From: a virus
Taxonomy: Duplodnaviria > Heunggongvirae > Uroviricota > Caudoviricetes
IMG/VR virus record: IMGVR_UViG_2526164634_000026
Length of the DNA: 30,934 nt
Strand: one strand, 5' to 3'
Shown here: one piece after another, positions 1 through 8,529 of the stretch
How positions within the stretch are numbered: the stretch's first letter is position 1
How the letters are laid out: the number at the start of each line of letters is the position of its first letter
Translations under genes and position numbers: made by a program
Notes under the pieces: generated by a model
Seen by the model: the letters and a program-made list of their open reading frames with translations, nothing else
The model's database searches: none
What the model was told of the DNA's origin: nothing

Positions 1-1284
1 TTACTTCTTCGCCTCTGCAACCACTTTACTACCCACGCCGCGGTTATTGTATTCCCACATGCGGTTGTAGTTAGTGTCATTCAGATTGCGCTGTATTTCG
101 TCGTTATCATCTACGCTGCCGGTATTACCCGCAAACGGACGATTAGAGATCACCGCATCGGCCCACGGTTTAGCCGTGTTAAAACCTTCGTTGATGGCGC
201 TATCACGGATCACCACCTGACCGTTGGTATTGGCATCAACATCCAGCGAGCGGCCCAGTTGCGCCACACCATCACCGAAAGCATTGAAACGGCTGTTTAC
301 GGCGAGGAAACCGTAGTAAATGTTGGACAGCGTAGCCGGTGCAAACACATACGCTTCTTGCTGAGTACGTGAGTTCACCACGCGGAATTCGGTGTTATCG
401 AACACCACTGCGCCGCGACCAGAAACGATATCCACATCCCCTTCAATGTAGCTGTTGGTCACCAGCGTACGCGGCTGACGGTTGGTTTCCAGACGGTTCT
501 GCACACCGCTGTTGGTGACAAAGAAGGTGTTCTGACGACCGAGAATGTTAACGTTGTTAATCTGTACCTGGTCACCATCAGTACGCAGTGCCACCGCCGG
601 ATGGTTACCTGCATCTACGCTATCGCCCAGCGTGTTTTCGATGGTCAGATTTTGCAGTTGCAGGCCATTGTTTTGTGACCAGAAGACCGCAGAGCAGAGA
701 ACACCGATACTGTCGCTGCGTTTGCTCTGGCAGCTATCGTACATATACCACGCTGGTTTACCTGGCATATATTTGCCGCGCGGGTTGACGTCGTGACGCC
801 AGTCGGCAGGGCTCATGCCCCCATCAAGGGAAAGCCCAATCTTCACATCAATCGGTTTTTCACCTGTACCGTACAGAGTAATTCCACCCGGAGCAGCAGG
901 GACATACACCGTTCCCTGATACTCACCAGGCATCACGGCAATATACTGGCGCTTGTTAGTGCGCTTGATAATTGCCGCATCTACCGCCGCCTGAATCGTG
1001 GTATGCGTTACACCTTGAGTACCCGCCGGGCCGACAACAAAGTCAGGTTGCGCAGGCAGGGTAATCGGGGAAGGATTCCACGCTGCAGCACCTGGTGTCA
1101 GGGATGCAAAATAGTGTTGAGCATCGAAATTCTGCGCTTCTTTTGCCGACAGAATCGGGCGAGAAGAGGTACCAGGCGCGGTTTGATCAGAAGGACGTTG
1201 ATCGGGTGGTGTTGAGCTACAGGCGGTCAGCGTCACGCCAAAAGCCAATGCCAGCGCCAGACGGGAAACTGAAAATGTGTTCAC
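1..1284 (-). CDS. ybhC: YbhC, outer-membrane lipoprotein (pectinesterase-like acyl-CoA thioesterase); chromosomal gene on the gal side of attB-lambda
   Basis: Complete 427-aa ORF with lipoprotein signal (…GVTLTAC SS); recognised as E. coli YbhC; ends 47 bp from the att core. Confidence 0.85.
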   Translation of the reverse strand: MNTFSVSRLALALAFGVTLTACSSTPPDQRPSDQTAPGTSSRPILSAKEAQNFDAQHYFASLTPGAAAWNPSPITLPAQPDFVVGPAGTQGVTHTTIQAAVDAAIIKRTNKRQYIAVMPGEYQGTVYVPAAPGGITLYGTGEKPIDVKIGLSLDGGMSPADWRHDVNPRGKYMPGKPAWYMYDSCQSKRSDSIGVLCSAVFWSQNNGLQLQNLTIENTLGDSVDAGNHPAVALRTDGDQVQINNVNILGRQNTFFVTNSGVQNRLETNRQPRTLVTNSYIEGDVDIVSGRGAVVFDNTEFRVVNSRTQQEAYVFAPATLSNIYYGFLAVNSRFNAFGDGVAQLGRSLDVDANTNGQVVIRDSAINEGFNTAKPWADAVISNRPFAGNTGSVDDNDEIQRNLNDTNYNRMWEYNNRGVGSKVVAEAKK

Positions 1285-1330: not shown

Positions 1331-1345
1331 GCTTTTTTATACTAA
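1331..1345. other. attL: attL common core (GCTTTTTTATACTAA) followed by lambda P' arm with Int arm-type sites (to about 1430)
   Basis: Exact lambda core; flanking sequence matches lambda attP P' arm (…CAGTCAAAATAAAATCATTATTTG…) on the int side and chromosomal attB arm on the ybhC side. Confidence 0.85.
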
Positions 1346-1418
1346 GTTGGCATTATAAAAAAACATTGCTTATCAATTTGTTGCAACGAACAGGTCACTA
1401 TCAGTCAAAATAAAATCA

Positions 1419-2489
1419 TTATTTGATTTCAATTTTGTCCCACTCCCTGCCTCTGTCATCACGATACTGTGATGCCATGGTGTCCGACTTATGTCCGAGA
1501 AGATGTTGAGCAAACTTATCGCTTATCTGCTTCTCATAGAGTCTTGCAGACAAACTGCGCAACTCGTGAAAGGTAGGCGGATCCCCTTCGAAGGAAAGAC
1601 CTGATGCTTTTCGTGCGCGCATAAAATACCTTGATACTGTGCCGGATGAAAGCGGTTCACGACGAGTAGATGCAATTATGGTTTCTCCGCCAAGAATCTC
1701 TTTGCATTTATCAAGTGTTTCCTTCATTGATATCCCGAGAGCATCAACATGCAATGTTGTAGGGATGGCAATTTTTACGCCTGTTTTGCTTTGTTCGACA
1801 TAAAGATATCCATCTACGATATCAGACCACTTCATTTCGCATAAATCACCAACTCGCTGCCCGGTAACAACAGCCAGTTCCATTGCAAGTCTGAGCCAAC
1901 ATGGTGATGATTCTGCTGCTTGATAAATTTTCAGGTATTCGTCAGCCGTAAGTCTTGATCTCCTTACCTCTGATTTTGCTGCGCGAGTGGCAGCGACCGG
2001 GTTTGTTGTTATATGGCCTTCAGCTATTGCCTCTCGGAATGCATCGCTCAGTGTTGATCTGATTAACTTGGCTGACGCCGCCTTGCCCTCGTCTATGTAT
2101 CCATTGAGCATTGCCGCAATTTCTTTTGTGGTGATGTCTTCAAGTGGAGCATCAGGCAGCCCCCTCCTTATTGCTTTAATTTTGCTCATGTAATTTATGA
2201 GTGTCTTCTGCTTGATTCCTCTGCTGGCGAGGATTTTTTCGTAGCGATCAAGCCATGAATGTAACGTAACAGAATTATCACTGTTGATTCTCGCTGTCAG
2301 AGGCTTGTGTTTGTGTCCTGAAAATAACTCAATATTGGCCTGTATTGCTTCAGTGATTGCTATCCTCCTGTCTCGGCCTAAACCAAACTCTTTACCCGTC
2401 CTTGGGTCCCTGTAGCAGTAATATCCATTGTTTCTTATATAAAGGTTAGGGGGTAAATCCCGGCGCTCATGACTTCGCCTTCTTCCCAT
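1419..2489 (-). CDS. int: Lambda integrase (tyrosine recombinase)
   Basis: 356-aa ORF recognised as lambda Int (MGRRRSHERRDLPPNLYIRNNGYYCYRDPRTGKEFGLG…). Confidence 0.95.
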   Translation of the reverse strand: MGRRRSHERRDLPPNLYIRNNGYYCYRDPRTGKEFGLGRDRRIAITEAIQANIELFSGHKHKPLTARINSDNSVTLHSWLDRYEKILASRGIKQKTLINYMSKIKAIRRGLPDAPLEDITTKEIAAMLNGYIDEGKAASAKLIRSTLSDAFREAIAEGHITTNPVAATRAAKSEVRRSRLTADEYLKIYQAAESSPCWLRLAMELAVVTGQRVGDLCEMKWSDIVDGYLYVEQSKTGVKIAIPTTLHVDALGISMKETLDKCKEILGGETIIASTRREPLSSGTVSRYFMRARKASGLSFEGDPPTFHELRSLSARLYEKQISDKFAQHLLGHKSDTMASQYRDDRGREWDKIEIK

Positions 2490-2685
2490 TTCTGATCCTC
2501 TTCAAAAGGCTACCTGTTACTGGTCGATTTAAGTCAACCTTTACCGCTGATTCGTGGAACAGATACTCTCTTCCATCCTTAACCGGAGGAGGGAATATCC
2601 TGCATTCGCGCACCCATCGACGAACTGTTTCAAGGCTTCTTGGGCGTCGCTGGCGTGCGTTCCACTCCTGAAGTGTCAAGTACAT
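2467..2685 (-). CDS. xis: Lambda excisionase
   Basis: 72-aa ORF recognised as lambda Xis (MYLTLQEWNARQRRPRSLETVRRWVRECRIFPP…); overlaps int start as in lambda. Confidence 0.9.
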   Translation of the reverse strand: MYLTLQEWNARQRRPRSLETVRRWVRECRIFPPPVKDGREYLFHESAVKVDLNRPVTGSLLKRIRNGKKAKS

Positions 2686-3206
2686 CGCAAAGTCTCCGCA
2701 ATTACACGCAAGAAAAAGCCGCCATCAGGCGGCTTGGTGTTCTTTCAGTTCTTCAATTCGAATATTGGTTATGTCTGCATGTGCTATCTGCGCCCATATC
2801 ATCCAGTGGTCATAGCAGTCATTGATGTTCTCTGCTTCGATAACTCTGTTGAATGGTTCTCCATTCCATTCACCTGTGACTCGGAAGTGCATTTATCATC
2901 TCCATAAAACAAAACCCGCCGTAGCGAGTTCAGATAAAAGAAATCCTCGTCAGTGCGAGGATGCTGTTCATTGCTGCTATACACTTTTTTGCTCTCAACG
3001 TAAGCGGTAGCTCATTCTGTTGGGTTGGTGCAGTTGCTTTTAGGAAATGCTATTTACCCCTTAAACGTCGGCTGAAAGAGCTAAAATCCATGCAAAAAAT
3101 TTACGCAATTTTGTGTATTATTGTGCAGTAAGTAATGAGCTATTTTCTGCGCAAAAAATGGATGGTAAATTTGTCCGGGGCAGGAAAAATTTTATGGACG
3201 CTAAAC

Positions 3207-3737
3207 ATGAAAAAAGATTCGTATCCTTATTTGATTTGCATGACAGTTTCAGGCCTGATCTTTATTTTCCTTTTCTTCTGGTGGCGGGCAGATATTTACA
3301 GGGTCACGTTTCTTAATCAGAGTATATCCCACTATTACATTCTGTTTAGCATGGGAATAGCTTTTCTGTTATCTCTGTTTTGGGTTAAGAAGGGGATAGT
3401 AAAACAAAGCGGCTGGAAGAGTCTGTCAGCATACCTTAAGGTTTATGCAGGGATGTGCATATTTGCTGGATTTTTTCTGATTATACCCCTTACAACACTA
3501 ACTTATTTTTTGCCTGGAGAGACATCGTCTTATGTTGCACCGTATCGGTATACTTCCGGTAGTTCAAAAAGTTGTTCTGGAGCTGAGGTGGATGACCCCG
3601 ATCTACATGAGAATATTCGCATTTGCTATCCGTATGGCAATTATGAGTACGATAATATTATCTATGTTGAAAAGAAAATTAATACATTAGGTGCGGTAGT
3701 AACATATGCACAGACCGCGCGTGATGATACTGAATGA
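3207..3737 (+). CDS. Hypothetical polytopic membrane protein (about 176 aa from MKKDSYPY…; ORF opens at 3135), AT-rich cassette on the strand opposite the pL operon
   Basis: ORF track 3135..3737; several hydrophobic segments then a Cys/Tyr-rich soluble tail; low GC; occupies the ea8.5/ea22 position of lambda. Confidence 0.5.
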   Translation: MKKDSYPYLICMTVSGLIFIFLFFWWRADIYRVTFLNQSISHYYILFSMGIAFLLSLFWVKKGIVKQSGWKSLSAYLKVYAGMCIFAGFFLIIPLTTLTYFLPGETSSYVAPYRYTSGSSKSCSGAEVDDPDLHENIRICYPYGNYEYDNIIYVEKKINTLGAVVTYAQTARDDTE

Positions 3738-3771
3738 GATAGTATATAGCGGGCAAGTTTTAGTTAATTTA

Positions 3772-3805
3772 TCGAGGTAATATAATTTACCTCGACTCGT
3801 TTATT
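3772..3805 (+). terminator. Putative intrinsic terminator after the membrane-protein cassette
   Basis: Stem TCGAGGTAA / TTACCTCGA with 6-nt loop, then a T-rich tail. Confidence 0.35.
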
Positions 3806-3947
3806 CTGGTATTAATATTTCGCTTTACGATCGATTTTTATCTGATGATATCATGCGGTTTTCATATACTGACTTACTGTCTTTTCTCCGTTAGCGATTT
3901 TCTCCTGCTCAGCGATGATTTTATCTTTGGCTTCTAGTTAATTTCGC

Positions 3948-4169
3948 TCACTTCGAACCTCTCTGTTTACTGATAAGTTCCAGATCCTCCTGGCAACTTG
4001 CACAAGTCCGACAACCCTGAACGGCCAGGCGTCTTCGCTCATCTATGGGATCGCCACACTCACAACAATGAGTGGCAGATATAGCCTGGTGGTTCAGGCG
4101 GCGCATTTTTATTGCTGTGTTGCGCTGTAATTCTTCAATTTCTGATGCTGAATCAATGATGTCTGCCAT
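3948..4169 (-). CDS. TraR/DksA-family C4 zinc-finger protein (lambda Orf73-like)
   Basis: 73-aa ORF with CxxC…CxxC (CCECGDPIDERRRLAVQGCRTCASC); position and size match lambda orf73. Confidence 0.8.
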   Translation of the reverse strand: MADIIDSASEIEELQRNTAIKMRRLNHQAISATHCCECGDPIDERRRLAVQGCRTCASCQEDLELISKQRGSK

Positions 4170-4267
4170 CTTCCATTAATCCCTGAATTGTTGGTTAATA
4201 CGCTTGAGGGTGAATGCGAACAATAAAAAAGGAGCCTGTAGCTCCCTGATGATTTTGCTTTTCATGC

Positions 4268-4549
4268 TCACCGTTCCTTAAAGACGCCGTTTAACATGCC
4301 GATCGCCAGGCTTAAATGAGTCGGTGTGAATCCCATCAGCGTTACCGTTTCGCGGTGCTTCTTCAGTACGCTACGGCAAATGTCATCGACGTTTTTATCC
4401 GGAAACTGCTGTCTGGCTTTTTTGATTTCAGAATTAGCCTGACGGGCAATGCTGCGAAGGGCGTTTTCTTGCTGAGGTGTCACTGAACAAGCCCCATGTC
4501 GGCAAGCATAAGCAAACAGAATATGAAGCCCGCTGCCAGAAAAATGCAT
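4268..4549 (-). CDS. Lambda early-left small protein (orf60a-like); start codon uncertain
   Basis: ORF track 93 aa in the lambda orf60a position between orf73 and orf63. Confidence 0.4.
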   Translation of the reverse strand: MHFSGSGLHILFAYACRHGACSVTPQQENALRSIARQANSEIKKARQQFPDKNVDDICRSVLKKHRETVTLMGFTPTHLSLAIGMLNGVFKER

Positions 4550-4559
4550 TCAGTGGTTG

Positions 4560-4751
4560 TCATACCTGGTCTCTCTCATCTGCTTCTGCTTTCGCCACCA
4601 TCATTTCCAGCTTTTGTGAAAGGGATGTGGCTAACGTATGAAATTCTTCGTCTGTTTCTACTGGTATTGGCACAAACCTGACTCCAATTTGAGCAAGGCT
4701 ATGTGCCATCTCAATGCTCGTTCTTAACTCAACAGGAGATGCTTTGTGCAT
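4560..4751 (-). CDS. Lambda orf63-like small protein
   Basis: 63-aa ORF in the lambda orf63 position and size. Confidence 0.55.
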   Translation of the reverse strand: MHKASPVELRTSIEMAHSLAQIGVRFVPIPVETDEEFHTLATSLSQKLEMMVAKAEADERDQV

Positions 4752-4912
4752 ACAGCCCCTCGTTTATTATTTATCTCCTCAGCCAGGCGCTGGGCTTTCA
4801 GTGGATTTTGGATAACAGAAAGGTCGGGAAATACCCAGCCTCGCTTTGTAACGGAGTAGATGAAAGTGATCGCACCTACCCGGATATTATCGTGAGGATG
4901 CTTCATCGCCAT
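4724..4912 (-). CDS. Lambda orf61-like small protein
   Basis: 62-aa ORF immediately downstream of exo in the leftward operon. Confidence 0.5.
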
Positions 4913-5583
4913 TGCTCCCCAAATACAAAACCAATTTCAGCCAGTGCCTCGTCCATTTTTTCGATGAACTCCGGCACCATCTCGTCAAAACCCGCCATGT
5001 ACTTTTCATCCCGCTCAACCACGACATAATGCAGTCCTTCACGCTTCATACGCGGGTCATAGTTGGCAAAGTACCAGGCATCTTTTCGCGTCACCCACAT
5101 GCTGTACTGCACCTGGGTCATGTAAGCTGACTTTATGGCCTCGAAACCACCGAGCCGGAACTTCATGAAATCCCGGGAGGTAAACGGGCATTTCAGTTCA
5201 AGGCCGTTGCCGTCACTGCATAAACCATCTGGAGAGCAGGCGGTACGCATACTTTCGTCGCGATAGATGATCGGTGATTCAGTAACATTCACGCCGGAAG
5301 TGAACTCAAACAGGGCTCTGGCGTCGTTCTCGTACTGTTTTCCCCAGGCCAGCGCTTTAGCGTTAACTTCCGGAGCCACACCGGTGCAAACCTCAGCAAG
5401 CAGGGTGTGGAAGTAGGACATTTTCATGTCAGGCCACTTTTTTCCGGAGCGGGGTTTTGCTATTACGTTATGAACTTCTGAAGCTGTGATGACGCCGAGC
5501 CGTAATTTGTGCCACGCATCATCCCCCTGTTCGACAGCTCTCACGTCGATCCCGGTACGCTGCAGGATAATGTCCGGTGTCAT
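4903..5583 (-). CDS. exo: Lambda exonuclease (Red alpha)
   Basis: 226-aa ORF recognised as lambda Exo ([58 protein letters not shown]…). Confidence 0.95.
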
Positions 5584-6365
5584 GCTGCCACCTTCTGCTC
5601 AGTGGCTTTCTGTTTCAGGAATCCAAGAGCTTTCACTGCTTCGGCCTGTGTCAGTTCTGACGATGCGCGAATGTCGCGGCGAAATATCTGGGAACAGAGC
5701 GGCAATAAGTCGTCATCCCATGTTTTATCCAGGGCGATTAGCAGAGTGTTAATCTCCTGCATGGTTTCATCGTTAACCGGAGTGATGTCGCGTTCCGGCT
5801 GGCGTTCTGCAGTGTATGCAGTATTTTCGACAATGCGCTCGGCTTCATCCTTGTCATAGATACCAGCAAATCCGAAGGCCAGACGGGCACACTGAATCAT
5901 AGCTTTATGCCGTAACATCCGTTTAGGATGCGACTGCCACGGCCCCGTGATTTCTCTGCCTTCGCGGGTTTTGAATGGTTCGCGGCGGCATTCATCCATC
6001 CATTCGGTAACGCAGATCGGATGATTACGGTCCTTGCGGTAAATCCGGCATGTACAGGATTCATTGTCCTGCTCAAAGTCCATGCCATCAAACTGCTGGT
6101 TTTCATTGATGATGCGGGACCAGCCATCAACGCCCACCACCGGAACGATGCCGTTCTGCTTATCAGGGAAGGCGTAAATTTCTTTCGTCCACGGATTAAG
6201 GCCGTACTGGTTGGCGACGATCAACAATGCGATGAACTGCGCATCGCTGGCATCGCCTTTAAATGCCGTCTGGCGAAGAGTGGTGATCAGTTCCTGTGGG
6301 TCGACAGAATCCATGCCGACACGTTCAGCCAGCTTCCCTGCCAGCGTTGCGAGTGCTGTACTCAT
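5580..6365 (-). CDS. bet: Lambda Bet (Red beta single-strand annealing protein)
   Basis: 261-aa ORF recognised as lambda Bet; start overlaps exo stop. Confidence 0.95.
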
Positions 6366-6885: not shown

Positions 6886-7018
6886 TTTTTGGGACTCCTG
6901 GCTGATTAAGTATGTCGATAAGGCGTTTCCATCCGTCACGTAATTTACGGGTGATTCGTTCAAGTAAAGATTCGGAAGGGCAGCCAGCAACAGGCCACCC
7001 TGCAATGGCATATTGCAT
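6854..7018 (-). CDS. cIII: Lambda CIII (FtsH/HflB inhibitor), 54 aa
   Basis: Hand-translated from ATG at 7018 (MQYAIAGWP…YPD*, stop at 6854-6856); below the track's 60-aa cutoff; 32-nt overlap with kil as in lambda. Confidence 0.8.
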   Translation of the reverse strand: MQYAIAGWPVAGCPSESLLERITRKLRDGWKRLIDILNQPGVPKNGSNNYGYPD

Positions 7019-7090
7019 GGTGTGCTCCTTATTTATACATAACGAAAAACGCCTCGAGTGAAGCGTAATTGGTATGCGGTAACGCCGCGC

Positions 7091-7647: not shown

Positions 7648-8529
7648 TTATGACCACTTTTTGTTTGGGTTTCGTTGGTGAGCGTGGTTTACAGGATTAT
7701 TTGATATACCCCATAACTCTGACTCGCTTATCTCTACACGAGAGAAAGACCTGCTTTCTTTCAGTTCTTTTATAAACCTAGAACCTAAGATGACATCTAT
7801 TGTACCAGAAAGTTCTTGTAAAAGATCTATGTTTTTTCTGAGGAAGAAAATATCTTCTTTATATTTAATTTTTACATAGAATTTATTCTGTATTTTTAAT
7901 ATATCAAAGCATGGCAGATATCTATATCCCTCATATTTTCGCCACTGCTTAACAATTATAACATCTTTTTCATTTACTGCATTAATCAGCCCAAGACCAA
8001 GTACAGGTATGAATATTCTATTGTCTGCCGAAAGCGTACAATTATCACCACCAGGCAAATATGTATAAATCATGTCGGAATTTTTATACGCATCAACGAA
8101 TGCACGTAAGAAGCGTACATATTTTTGCCATCCGTTTATACCGAATTTACCATATAAGTATTCTTTATTTGTTAGAAGAAAACTATTTGTATCAGGATCC
8201 TTATCTACAGACCTGTCGATAAGATCTCCAACTACGTTTACAAAGTCAAAGACAGAGTTTAATAAGAACAATTGTCTTTCAGTAGGGCGAATTTCAATTA
8301 TGTAGCCAGGATGAAGACGATATTGCATCTGCTTACGAAGTATACCGAACGCTTGGGTCCGAGCATCTGAAAGCAACTTCTTGTCGCCATCGCCGTGAGC
8401 ATTGTTTCTAATAAAACTGATATAATTTGCTAATTTTTCAGCCTCTTTTTTGTGTTTTTTTCGCTCTGATGCTGAGTCTATTGGTTTTGGTATGGACTTG
8501 TAATCAATCTTCTTCATTACGTACCTCAT
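7648..8529 (-). CDS. Hypothetical 293-aa protein of unknown function, AT-rich, at the sieB/ral position directly downstream of N
   Basis: ORF track; start ATG overlaps the N stop (ATGA); no TM segments or motifs I recognise; GC clearly below the flanking lambda genes. Confidence 0.6.
   Translation of the reverse strand: MRYVMKKIDYKSIPKPIDSASERKKHKKEAEKLANYISFIRNNAHGDGDKKLLSDARTQAFGILRKQMQYRLHPGYIIEIRPTERQLFLLNSVFDFVNVVGDLIDRSVDKDPDTNSFLLTNKEYLYGKFGINGWQKYVRFLRAFVDAYKNSDMIYTYLPGGDNCTLSADNRIFIPVLGLGLINAVNEKDVIIVKQWRKYEGYRYLPCFDILKIQNKFYVKIKYKEDIFFLRKNIDLLQELSGTIDVILGSRFIKELKESRSFSRVEISESELWGISNNPVNHAHQRNPNKKWS

Follow-up and report, generated by a model that had tools for sequence, protein, structure and literature searches.

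What occupies the place of ea8.5 and ea22 in a prophage that otherwise follows lambda closely, and what might its gene do for the cell that carries it? The question arises in a 30,934-nucleotide (nt) stretch of DNA from a virus of the Caudoviricetes (IMG/VR virus record IMGVR_UViG_2526164634_000026; hereafter the window, meaning the whole stretch analyzed), where a preliminary description made from the letters alone had noticed an AT-rich gene for a polytopic membrane protein lying opposite to the pL operon. With high confidence, we conclude that positions 3070–3844 form an autonomous mobile cassette—a moron—for a predicted inner-membrane protein with three transmembrane (TM) helices and a periplasmic barrel, and that this cassette has moved between P2-like and lambdoid prophages. 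The protein represents a new, uncharacterized family inside a known kind of element, the prophage moron encoding a membrane protein, and it is a good candidate for a prophage-encoded protective factor.

A replaced block and the cassette inside it

The window begins with the host gene ybhC (1–1284, minus strand) and continues into a lambdoid prophage at the lambda attachment site. Phage 434 matches it at 99.5% identity over 88% of the first 25 kb; across 2900–3960, identity is 100% to phage 434 (OL657226.1), 99.9% to phage 2B8, and 98.8% to mEp332. In a blastn comparison with lambda, two collinear stretches—window 1331–2962, running from the attP core to lambda 29355 at 97.7% identity, and window 3936–6000, running from lambda 30380 at 97.3%—enclose a replaced block. 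The features that define this interval are as follows:

2963–3935 (unstranded): block specific to 434-type phages, 973 bp in place of lambda 29356–30379; 100% identical to phage 434 (OL657226.1)
3070–3844 (plus strand): mobile cassette of regulatory region, gene, and hairpin, about 775 bp, shared with P2-like prophages
2943–2962 (minus strand): leftward-terminator hairpin, annotated tL4 in phage 434 and found by terminator scan, at the left edge of the replaced block
2725–2892 (minus strand): lambda-type ORF55 (open reading frame list)
2467–2685 (minus strand): xis (open reading frame list)
1419–2489 (minus strand): int (open reading frame list)

The gene had been placed where lambda has ea8.5 and ea22, and this placement is exact. 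The lambda segment at 29356–30379 is 1,024 bp long and holds ea8.5 and all of ea22 except its first 16 nt. On the left, lambda homology stops directly after the tL4 hairpin (the "t-L4" annotated at 2292–2322 of M60848 maps to window 2936–2966); on the right, it resumes 12 nt past the stop codon of a 73-amino-acid (aa) TraR/DksA-type zinc-finger gene (3948–4169, minus strand). The interval given in the preliminary description, between xis and the orf73 homologue, is correct except that ORF55 comes first after xis. Its statement that lambda b-region genes are absent holds in substance, since tblastn found no match to ea8.5 or ea22 anywhere in the window, but these two genes belong to the early-left (pL) region and not to the classical b region; a search for homology between the cassette gene and lambda b-region products likewise found none.

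The open reading frame (ORF) list contains no minus-strand ORF of at least 40 aa within 2985–3947 and one substantial ORF in the block, 3135–3737 on the plus strand; the gene reported opposite to the pL operon is real, with coding from 3207. Its GC content is 38.8%, vs. 46.4% for the window, within a local minimum of 0.34–0.41 across 2850–3900, which bears out its description as AT-rich. Two marks of a moron are found here: presence in one of two close relatives and absence from the other (window vs. lambda, with flanks 97–98% identical), and deviant base composition.

The block as a whole is wider than the mobile unit within it. By blastn, 3070–3827/3844 aligns with P2-like loci of Escherichia coli (L105 and L020) at 76% identity (E about 1e-160), and Salmonella P2-like loci align at 70–71% identity from 3074–3111 to 3705. 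The shared unit comprises 137 bp upstream of the ATG, the gene, and about 107 bp past the stop codon. Noncoding sequence is conserved beyond the level of third codon positions: Over the 100 nt upstream, identity is 78–79% vs. 60% at third positions for E. coli P2 alleles, and 60–62% vs. 47–48% for Salmonella alleles (ungapped, ATG-anchored comparison; shuffled controls, 27–29%). A 775-bp unit common to an unrelated phage type, with conserved upstream blocks and a downstream hairpin as predicted signals, supports the moron layout that had been proposed. The delimitation of this mobile unit and of the conserved regulatory elements in it, the exact lambda replacement, and the link among lambdoid, P2-like, and chromosomal copies described below are additions of the present analysis.

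Gene model, control region, and predicted protein

The mechanically called ORF, 3135–3737 on the plus strand, would encode 200 aa, and databases disagree on its start: RefSeq and mEp332 give 200 aa from an ATG at 3135, the 434 record gives 188 aa from a TTG at 3171, and some records give 176 aa. Three intervals matter for the choice:

3207–3737 (plus strand): coding sequence of the 176-aa predicted inner-membrane protein, stop codon TGA at 3735–3737, conserved start, dN/dS about 0.1; the same gene as ECs_0804
3135–3206 (plus strand): in-frame upstream extension, annotated as coding by RefSeq and mEp332 and partly by 434; most likely promoter and leader
2961–3131 (plus strand): 56-aa ORF, "putative membrane protein" in 434 and mEp332; probably not a gene

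All 15 of the 15 diverged homologues in alignment A1 (42–78% identity) start at Met25 of the 200-aa ORF, with the motif MKK.SYP at window 3207, and P2-type alleles carry in-frame stop codons in the stretch upstream of 3207. For these two reasons, we adopt the 176-aa product and drop the 200-aa and 188-aa forms; the start chosen in the preliminary description, giving about 176 aa, was the right one. The extension at 3135–3206 is most likely promoter and leader rather than coding. Against diverged alleles, dN/dS is 0.08–0.14 (Nei–Gojobori), with slightly stronger constraint on the C-terminal domain than on the membrane part; judged from these comparisons, 3207–3737 is a genuine gene that evolves under purifying selection. 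Databases already listed the ORF itself, as a hypothetical protein or a putative membrane protein, and the corrected gene model is what this analysis adds.

The 56-aa ORF is, in contrast, probably not a gene, and we rejected it. Its homologues are limited to near-identical lambdoid alleles, it matches nothing in PADLOC or NCBIfam, the variants seen are all nonsynonymous or frameshift, and its 3′ end overlaps conserved TTGTG repeats. A separate observation concerns a cluster of P2-type alleles in E. coli (P0159, P0161, and P0168), in which a 112-aa version occurs on at least 1,000 contigs and may be either a truncated allele or a miscalled start.

The following elements flank the gene:

3101–3128 (plus strand): direct repeats TTGTG(C/T)A at 10–11-bp spacing (3111–3117, 3122–3128, and a degenerate copy at 3101–3107), kept in lambdoid and P2-type cassettes
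3143–3157 (plus strand): conserved block TTTTCTGCGCAAAAA, identified by alignment A3 and ungapped identity, with TTTTCT (3143–3148) in the −35 position
3163–3171 (plus strand): extended −10-like motif TGgTAAATT, the most conserved noncoding element
3772–3809 (plus strand): terminator-like hairpin with stem 3772–3780/3787–3795 and T-rich tail (z = −2.0)

A 17-nt spacer separates TTTTCT from the −10-like hexamer, and TGgTAAATT lies 36–41 nt before the ATG in lambdoid, E. coli P2, and Salmonella P2 copies as well as in the chromosomal copies of Cedecea and Citrobacter. From this arrangement, we infer an extended −10 sigma-70 promoter (TTTTCT–17 nt–TGnTAAATT) with a predicted transcription start at about 3177–3179 and a leader of about 28–30 nt. 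The predicted start lies downstream of both longer database start codons, in agreement with the 176-aa product. Transcripts from pL must pass antisense through the cassette on their way to tL4, ORF55, xis, and int, so that sense expression would be expected chiefly in the lysogen, where pL is repressed.

Other promoter candidates were set aside. A generic scan returned four hits vs. 4.6 expected by chance, all within the ORF, and these were rejected; a TTGTGC (−35)/TAATGA (−10) pair was dropped because its −10 is not conserved. The TTGTG repeats are probably a protein-binding or upstream promoter element. In P2-type cassettes, a 10-bp unit, ATTGTGCAGT, is present in two to four tandem copies (L004, L005, and L111, about 60–110 nt upstream of the gene). 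The 434 annotation flags 3111–3124 as the CII-site pattern TTGY-N6-TTGY; the repeats more likely serve a host factor or form an upstream promoter element, and a CII-dependent promoter for the cassette gene was judged unlikely, given that the repeats also occur in P2-type cassettes and read TTGT, not TTGC. The repeats are themselves flanked by a 26-nt direct repeat at 3075–3100 and 3134–3159 (AAAGAGCTAAAATCCATGCAAAAAAT and AATGAGCTATTTTCTGCGCAAAAAAT; 73% identity, 59 bp apart). Downstream of the gene, the hairpin that had been reported is borne out as a perfect 9-bp stem at 3772–3795 followed by CTCGTTTATTCTGG; P2-type alleles keep the stem base with one compensatory pair and lack the T-tract.

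Hydropathy analysis finds three hydrophobic segments, which are helices in an AlphaFold2 model built with the family alignment (mean predicted local distance difference test score, pLDDT, 82), consistent with the polytopic membrane protein first proposed. In the window, the predicted parts of the protein are:

3219–3293 (plus strand): TM helix 1, residues 5–29, running from the cytoplasmic MKKD outward (hydropathy; AlphaFold2 helix 29–53 in 200-aa numbering)
3318–3389 (plus strand): TM helix 2, residues 38–61 (hydropathy, AlphaFold2, and alignment A1)
3417–3509 (plus strand): TM helix 3 with a cytoplasmic extension, residues 71–101 (hydropathy and AlphaFold2)
3513–3734 (plus strand): C-terminal five-strand beta-barrel domain, residues 103–176, predicted periplasmic (AlphaFold2)

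The best model has the N terminus inside and the C terminus outside, with the first loop and the barrel in the periplasm. It rests on the positive-inside rule and on a conserved cysteine pair. The N-terminal MKKD is basic, as is the loop between TM2 and TM3 (four K/R, no D/E), which by the positive-inside rule would be cytoplasmic, and the C-terminal 74 residues are net acidic. Cys123 (3573–3575) and Cys140 (3624–3626), spaced 16 residues apart, do not vary in A1 and are also present in all of the more distant homologues read; they probably form a disulfide in the modeled domain, and the conserved pair argues for an oxidizing compartment. The loop before TM2, predicted to be periplasmic, carries the conserved sequence IYRVTFL and is modeled as a short strand, compatible with loop and C-terminal domain lying on the same side of the membrane.

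The C-terminal region had been called a Cys/Tyr-rich tail. Its nine tyrosines agree with that wording, but it contains two cysteines only, and it is predicted to be a folded domain, not a tail: Folded alone, the five-strand barrel reaches a pLDDT of 91. Invariant positions in A1 fall into three clusters—the N-terminal SY..L, the loop I.R.T.L, and the domain, with motifs PY.Y, CSGA.V..P.L, I.ICYP.G.Y, and K..N.LG.V..A. The fold and topology model is likewise an addition of this analysis.

Relatives, spread, and neighborhood

Searches for characterized relatives were largely negative. The 176-aa protein has no match in Pfam or NCBIfam, no defense family at E ≤ 1 in PADLOC-DB 2.0.0 (2023 version), no match among PDB sequences by profile search, and no Foldseek match to BFVD viral models at E ≤ 0.001. 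PHROGs returned phrog_1416 only, a 90-position profile without known function that covers the C-terminal half alone. One faint Foldseek match, to a two-TM, beta-strand-rich effector of the type found in the cyclic oligonucleotide-based antiphage signaling system (CBASS), was not significant (E 0.31, probability 0.21). Against 1.84 billion representatives, a HMMER profile search gave 61 clusters (50% identity) at E ≤ 0.001, whose full-length members share the size and layout of the window protein; the sole exception, the repeat protein P0146, matched through a short Cys-containing motif and was judged uninformative. A literature search on the phage 434 genome and on mEp332 returned nothing relevant.

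More than 100 loci, classified by marker genes, fell into three classes. Alleles 98–100% identical to the window are all lambdoid, and in them the TraR-type gene always lies 962 bp downstream; what lies to the left differs among them (lambda-type int/xis, a different integrase, or host sequence), with a left breakpoint near window 2890–2931. Alleles 47–80% identical have P2-like prophage contexts in all loci checked and stand nearly always between the portal gene gpQ and the replication gene gpA (L117 is arranged differently, and L015 and L119 have no portal match); they span P2 lineages whose portals are only 40–45% identical. Alleles 36–56% identical are chromosomal and outside prophages. 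In Enterobacter, this chromosomal locus is syntenic in at least seven species, located 16 bp downstream from a LysR regulator, with a HAMP-GGDEF gene as its neighbor; Cedecea and Pseudescherichia share a second locus, and Klebsiella has a third. Since P2-type alleles are diverse and lambdoid alleles uniform, these comparisons suggest that the cassette recently passed from a P2-type hotspot to the early-left region of lambdoid phages.

In a set of species representatives, members of the family occur only in Enterobacteriaceae (Citrobacter, Serratia, Enterobacter, Pseudescherichia, and Klebsiella). Of 5,426 complete E. coli genomes, 905 (17%) carry the lambdoid cassette with coverage of at least 80%, and the gene also occurs in Shigella sonnei. 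In O157:H7 Sakai, it is ECs_0804 of prophage Sp3, which is decayed, with int and bet pseudogenes; in E. coli WP2-S18-ESBL-07, an intact cassette lies in a remnant resembling KplE1, with torI on one side and a truncated exonuclease on the other. A 3.6-kb contig in a "Candidatus Nanosynbacter" metagenome-assembled genome carries the lambdoid cassette with TraR and exo genes at 97–99% identity and is almost certainly binning contamination.

The gpA–gpQ locus of P2-like phages is the old/tin diversity hotspot, a reservoir of anti-phage systems (PMC9122126; 10.1101/2024.10.15.618418). The catalogue of its cargo by Rousset et al. (2022) includes, in Table S5B, system #4: a single protein with no Pfam match, "3 TM," and 470 occurrences (PMC9122126). 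Its representative is 52% identical to the window protein over 168 aa (BLASTP, E 3e-57), and it belongs to the same family. The likeness extends to single-gene cargo without a Pfam match and with three TM segments, the fourth most frequent gpA–gpQ cargo in E. coli P2; the difference is one of location, the window copy lying between ORF55/xis/int and orf73/exo of a lambdoid prophage and not in the P2 gpA–gpQ slot. The catalogue entry carries no function. In a Klebsiella michiganensis P2-like prophage (L021–L023, 1281–4623, minus strand), a 790-aa NB-ARC/AAA_16 STAND NTPase and a 279-aa protein adjoin a family member in the same hotspot; neither has a PADLOC match, and the two are a possible uncatalogued defense pair.

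Among characterized proteins, P22 SieA is the nearest in layout. It is prophage-expressed from its own promoter, about 160 aa long, with three predicted TM helices in the inner membrane, and it blocks DNA delivery; its conserved motif FxRYPxEAxxFNK is cytoplasmic (PMC10883804). The window protein resembles it in size, in its predicted three-TM inner-membrane layout, and in being encoded by a single gene. It differs in lacking that motif, its conserved domain being instead a predicted periplasmic beta-barrel, and in location, as sieA genes lie between genes 16 and 9 of P22-like phages; direct comparison finds no sequence similarity (hhalign probability 0.2%, BLASTP E 12).

The exclusion protein gp15 of HK97 is a small membrane protein from a textbook moron (promoter, gene, terminator), annotated as "moron product" and followed by a terminator in the HK97 record. 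The layout is alike, but gp15 has 62 aa, lies in the tail-gene cluster, and shares no sequence similarity with the window protein (hhalign probability 0.7%). The lambda genes ea8.5 and ea22 share the slot between ORF55/tL and orf73; they are pL operon members on the strand opposite to the cassette gene, with unrelated sequences. Short NfeD proteins such as E. coli YbbJ and small membrane-anchored OB-like proteins (DUF1093, PDB 3npp) are also among the nearest systems; direct comparison with YbbJ/NfeD was negative, and no NfeD C-terminal domain was found.

Several features around the cassette are observations in their own right. The 73-aa TraR/DksA-type ORF to its right (3948–4169, minus strand) is open in lambda too (NC_001416, 30392–30613), with one amino-acid difference, and the lambda RefSeq record annotates no coding sequence there. 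At 4268–4549 (minus strand), the window has an intact 93-aa ORF (phrog_303) that is frameshifted in lambda, where its N-terminal part alone is annotated, as orf61. A 293-aa ORF at 7648–8529 (minus strand; GC 0.30–0.34), between an ea10/ssb-like gene and the remaining early-left operon, is labeled "Nun C-terminal peptide-containing protein" in the 434 record and looks like another foreign insertion. The sole Rfam match in the window is the lambda cIII thermoregulator element at 6973–7031 (minus strand, 88.5 bits), an expected element in the early-left operon of a lambdoid phage. Outside the window, at the opposite end of the prophage, the 434 record (OL657226.1, 1–1590, left of attP) annotates NleC-like and NleH-like type III effector fragments together with an IS1414 transposase fragment; a literature search on NleC in 434 returned nothing relevant.

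Possible functions at the envelope

We propose that the gene would be transcribed from its own extended −10 promoter in the lysogen, while pL is repressed, and that its product, at the envelope, would protect the lysogen from other phages. The periplasmic domain and the loop would attach to some conserved part of the route by which DNA enters—either a host inner-membrane or periplasmic factor or a conduit built there by incoming tails—and genome entry would thereby be blocked. In function, this would resemble the superinfection exclusion exerted by P22 SieA or HK97 gp15, although the protein is unrelated to both. Taken as a whole, from transcription in the lysogen to an envelope-level block of superinfecting genomes, the proposal is possible rather than probable. 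It draws on the use of accessory slots by two temperate phage types that are unrelated to each other, one of these slots being a documented defense hotspot; on the high prevalence (905/5,426) and the intact state of the gene in decayed prophages; and on the SieA-like size and layout, together with the NB-ARC STAND NTPase beside the Klebsiella family member. A more far-reaching version, that the protein is the founding member of a new superinfection-exclusion or defense family in which three TM helices and a disulfide-locked periplasmic barrel bind a host entry factor of many phages, would explain carriage by lambdoid and P2-like lineages, presence in 17% of complete E. coli genomes, and the fixed Enterobacter copy, but we regard it as doubtful.

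A number of results weigh against exclusion. There is no homology to known exclusion or defense proteins (PADLOC, SieA, and HK97 gp15); literature searches by accession and locus tag found no mention of WP_000120056 or ECs0804; and the motifs of the family are absent from the file of tested-system tables S2A/S2B of Rousset et al. and present in their Table S5 file only. Cargo of the hotspot is not always defense, its commonest occupant being the StbA/StbB partition pair (PMC9122126), and ten neighboring hotspot cargo proteins have no PADLOC match. The chromosomal alleles outside prophages point to a cellular envelope role. The predicted periplasmic domain is the slowest-evolving part of the protein, which is not what a phage arms race predicts, though it fits a conserved host target. 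At the level of expression, the Shine–Dalgarno sequence of the gene at 3207 is weak, and the generic sigma-70 scan missed the candidate promoter at 3143–3171 because its −35 matches at 3/6 positions only.

Some of these same observations would suit an envelope fitness or immunity factor unrelated to phages, one that neutralizes or excludes a periplasm-acting toxin (a colicin or other bacteriocin, or an effector of type VI secretion or contact-dependent inhibition) or buffers envelope stress, as a form of lysogenic conversion. A membrane-anchored periplasmic domain is the layout known from proteins that confer immunity to periplasm-acting toxins, the colicin M immunity protein among them. The predicted inner-membrane-anchored, disulfide-bearing periplasmic domain, its encoding by a single gene without partner, the syntenic chromosomal copies in several genera, and the non-defense cargo that accessory loci also hold would all be compatible with such a role, and strong conservation of the periplasmic domain fits a fixed ligand. 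We nonetheless consider it unlikely: The protein matches no immunity family in Pfam or NCBIfam, and no toxin gene lies nearby in the loci with listed genes. The chromosomal loci speak for a captured cellular-type envelope protein that modulates a host membrane process (signaling, transport, or wall and membrane homeostasis), with an indirect benefit to the phage or as a near-neutral passenger. Its core-like status in Enterobacter, syntenic beside LysR and HAMP-GGDEF genes, the further syntenic loci in Cedecea/Pseudescherichia and Klebsiella, and uniform purifying selection favor this account. A near-neutral passenger would not be expected in 905 of 5,426 E. coli genomes, however, nor to survive in decayed prophages with its regulatory region kept across phage types, and no consistent chromosomal partner gene recurs across genera; we hold this account to be quite unlikely.

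Protection might also be suicidal. An abortive-infection effector would sense incoming phage at the inner membrane and depolarize or permeabilize the cell, which would die before phage release. Hotspot membrane proteins in known systems are usually assumed to be suicide effectors (PMC9122126), and three helices with a beta-rich domain recall the CBASS-type effector of the faint Foldseek match. That match falls short of significance, the cassette holds one gene only, unaccompanied by a sensor or an enzyme, and a constitutive pore-former would be costly, yet the gene is stably chromosomal in Enterobacter; such an effector is distinctly improbable. Finally, the gene could serve the phage itself, with TTGT-N6-TTGT acting as a CII-type site that switches it on transiently at the establishment of lysogeny or early in infection. 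The conserved repeats and the mark placed on them by the 434 annotators recommend this idea, which we consider very improbable. The same repeats occur, in two to four copies, in P2-like cassettes, and P2-type phages are not known to encode a CII of the lambda type; established CII sites carry TTGC, not TTGT, and straddle the −35, and no conserved −10 lies at a matching distance here. Lambda is fully viable without the cassette, and the chromosomal copies exist without any phage.

As a type of finding this is no surprise; the gene, however, is uncommonly widespread, is found in a classic phage, and lends itself to direct tests. It belongs to 434, one of the founding model phages, to O157:H7 Sp3, and to about one-sixth of complete E. 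coli genomes, yet it is annotated as "hypothetical" with four inconsistent gene models. For experiment, the analysis supplies a construct (3070–3844), a corrected start codon, a topology model, and the residues Cys123 and Cys140 and the IYRVTFL loop as targets. If a cellular envelope role is true, the syntenic Enterobacter orthologue would offer a direct genetic handle on it. If instead the protein protects lysogens at the envelope, an unrelated structural solution would join the very short list of understood inner-membrane exclusion proteins, and host-range predictions for phage therapy of E. coli, Salmonella, and Klebsiella would be affected.

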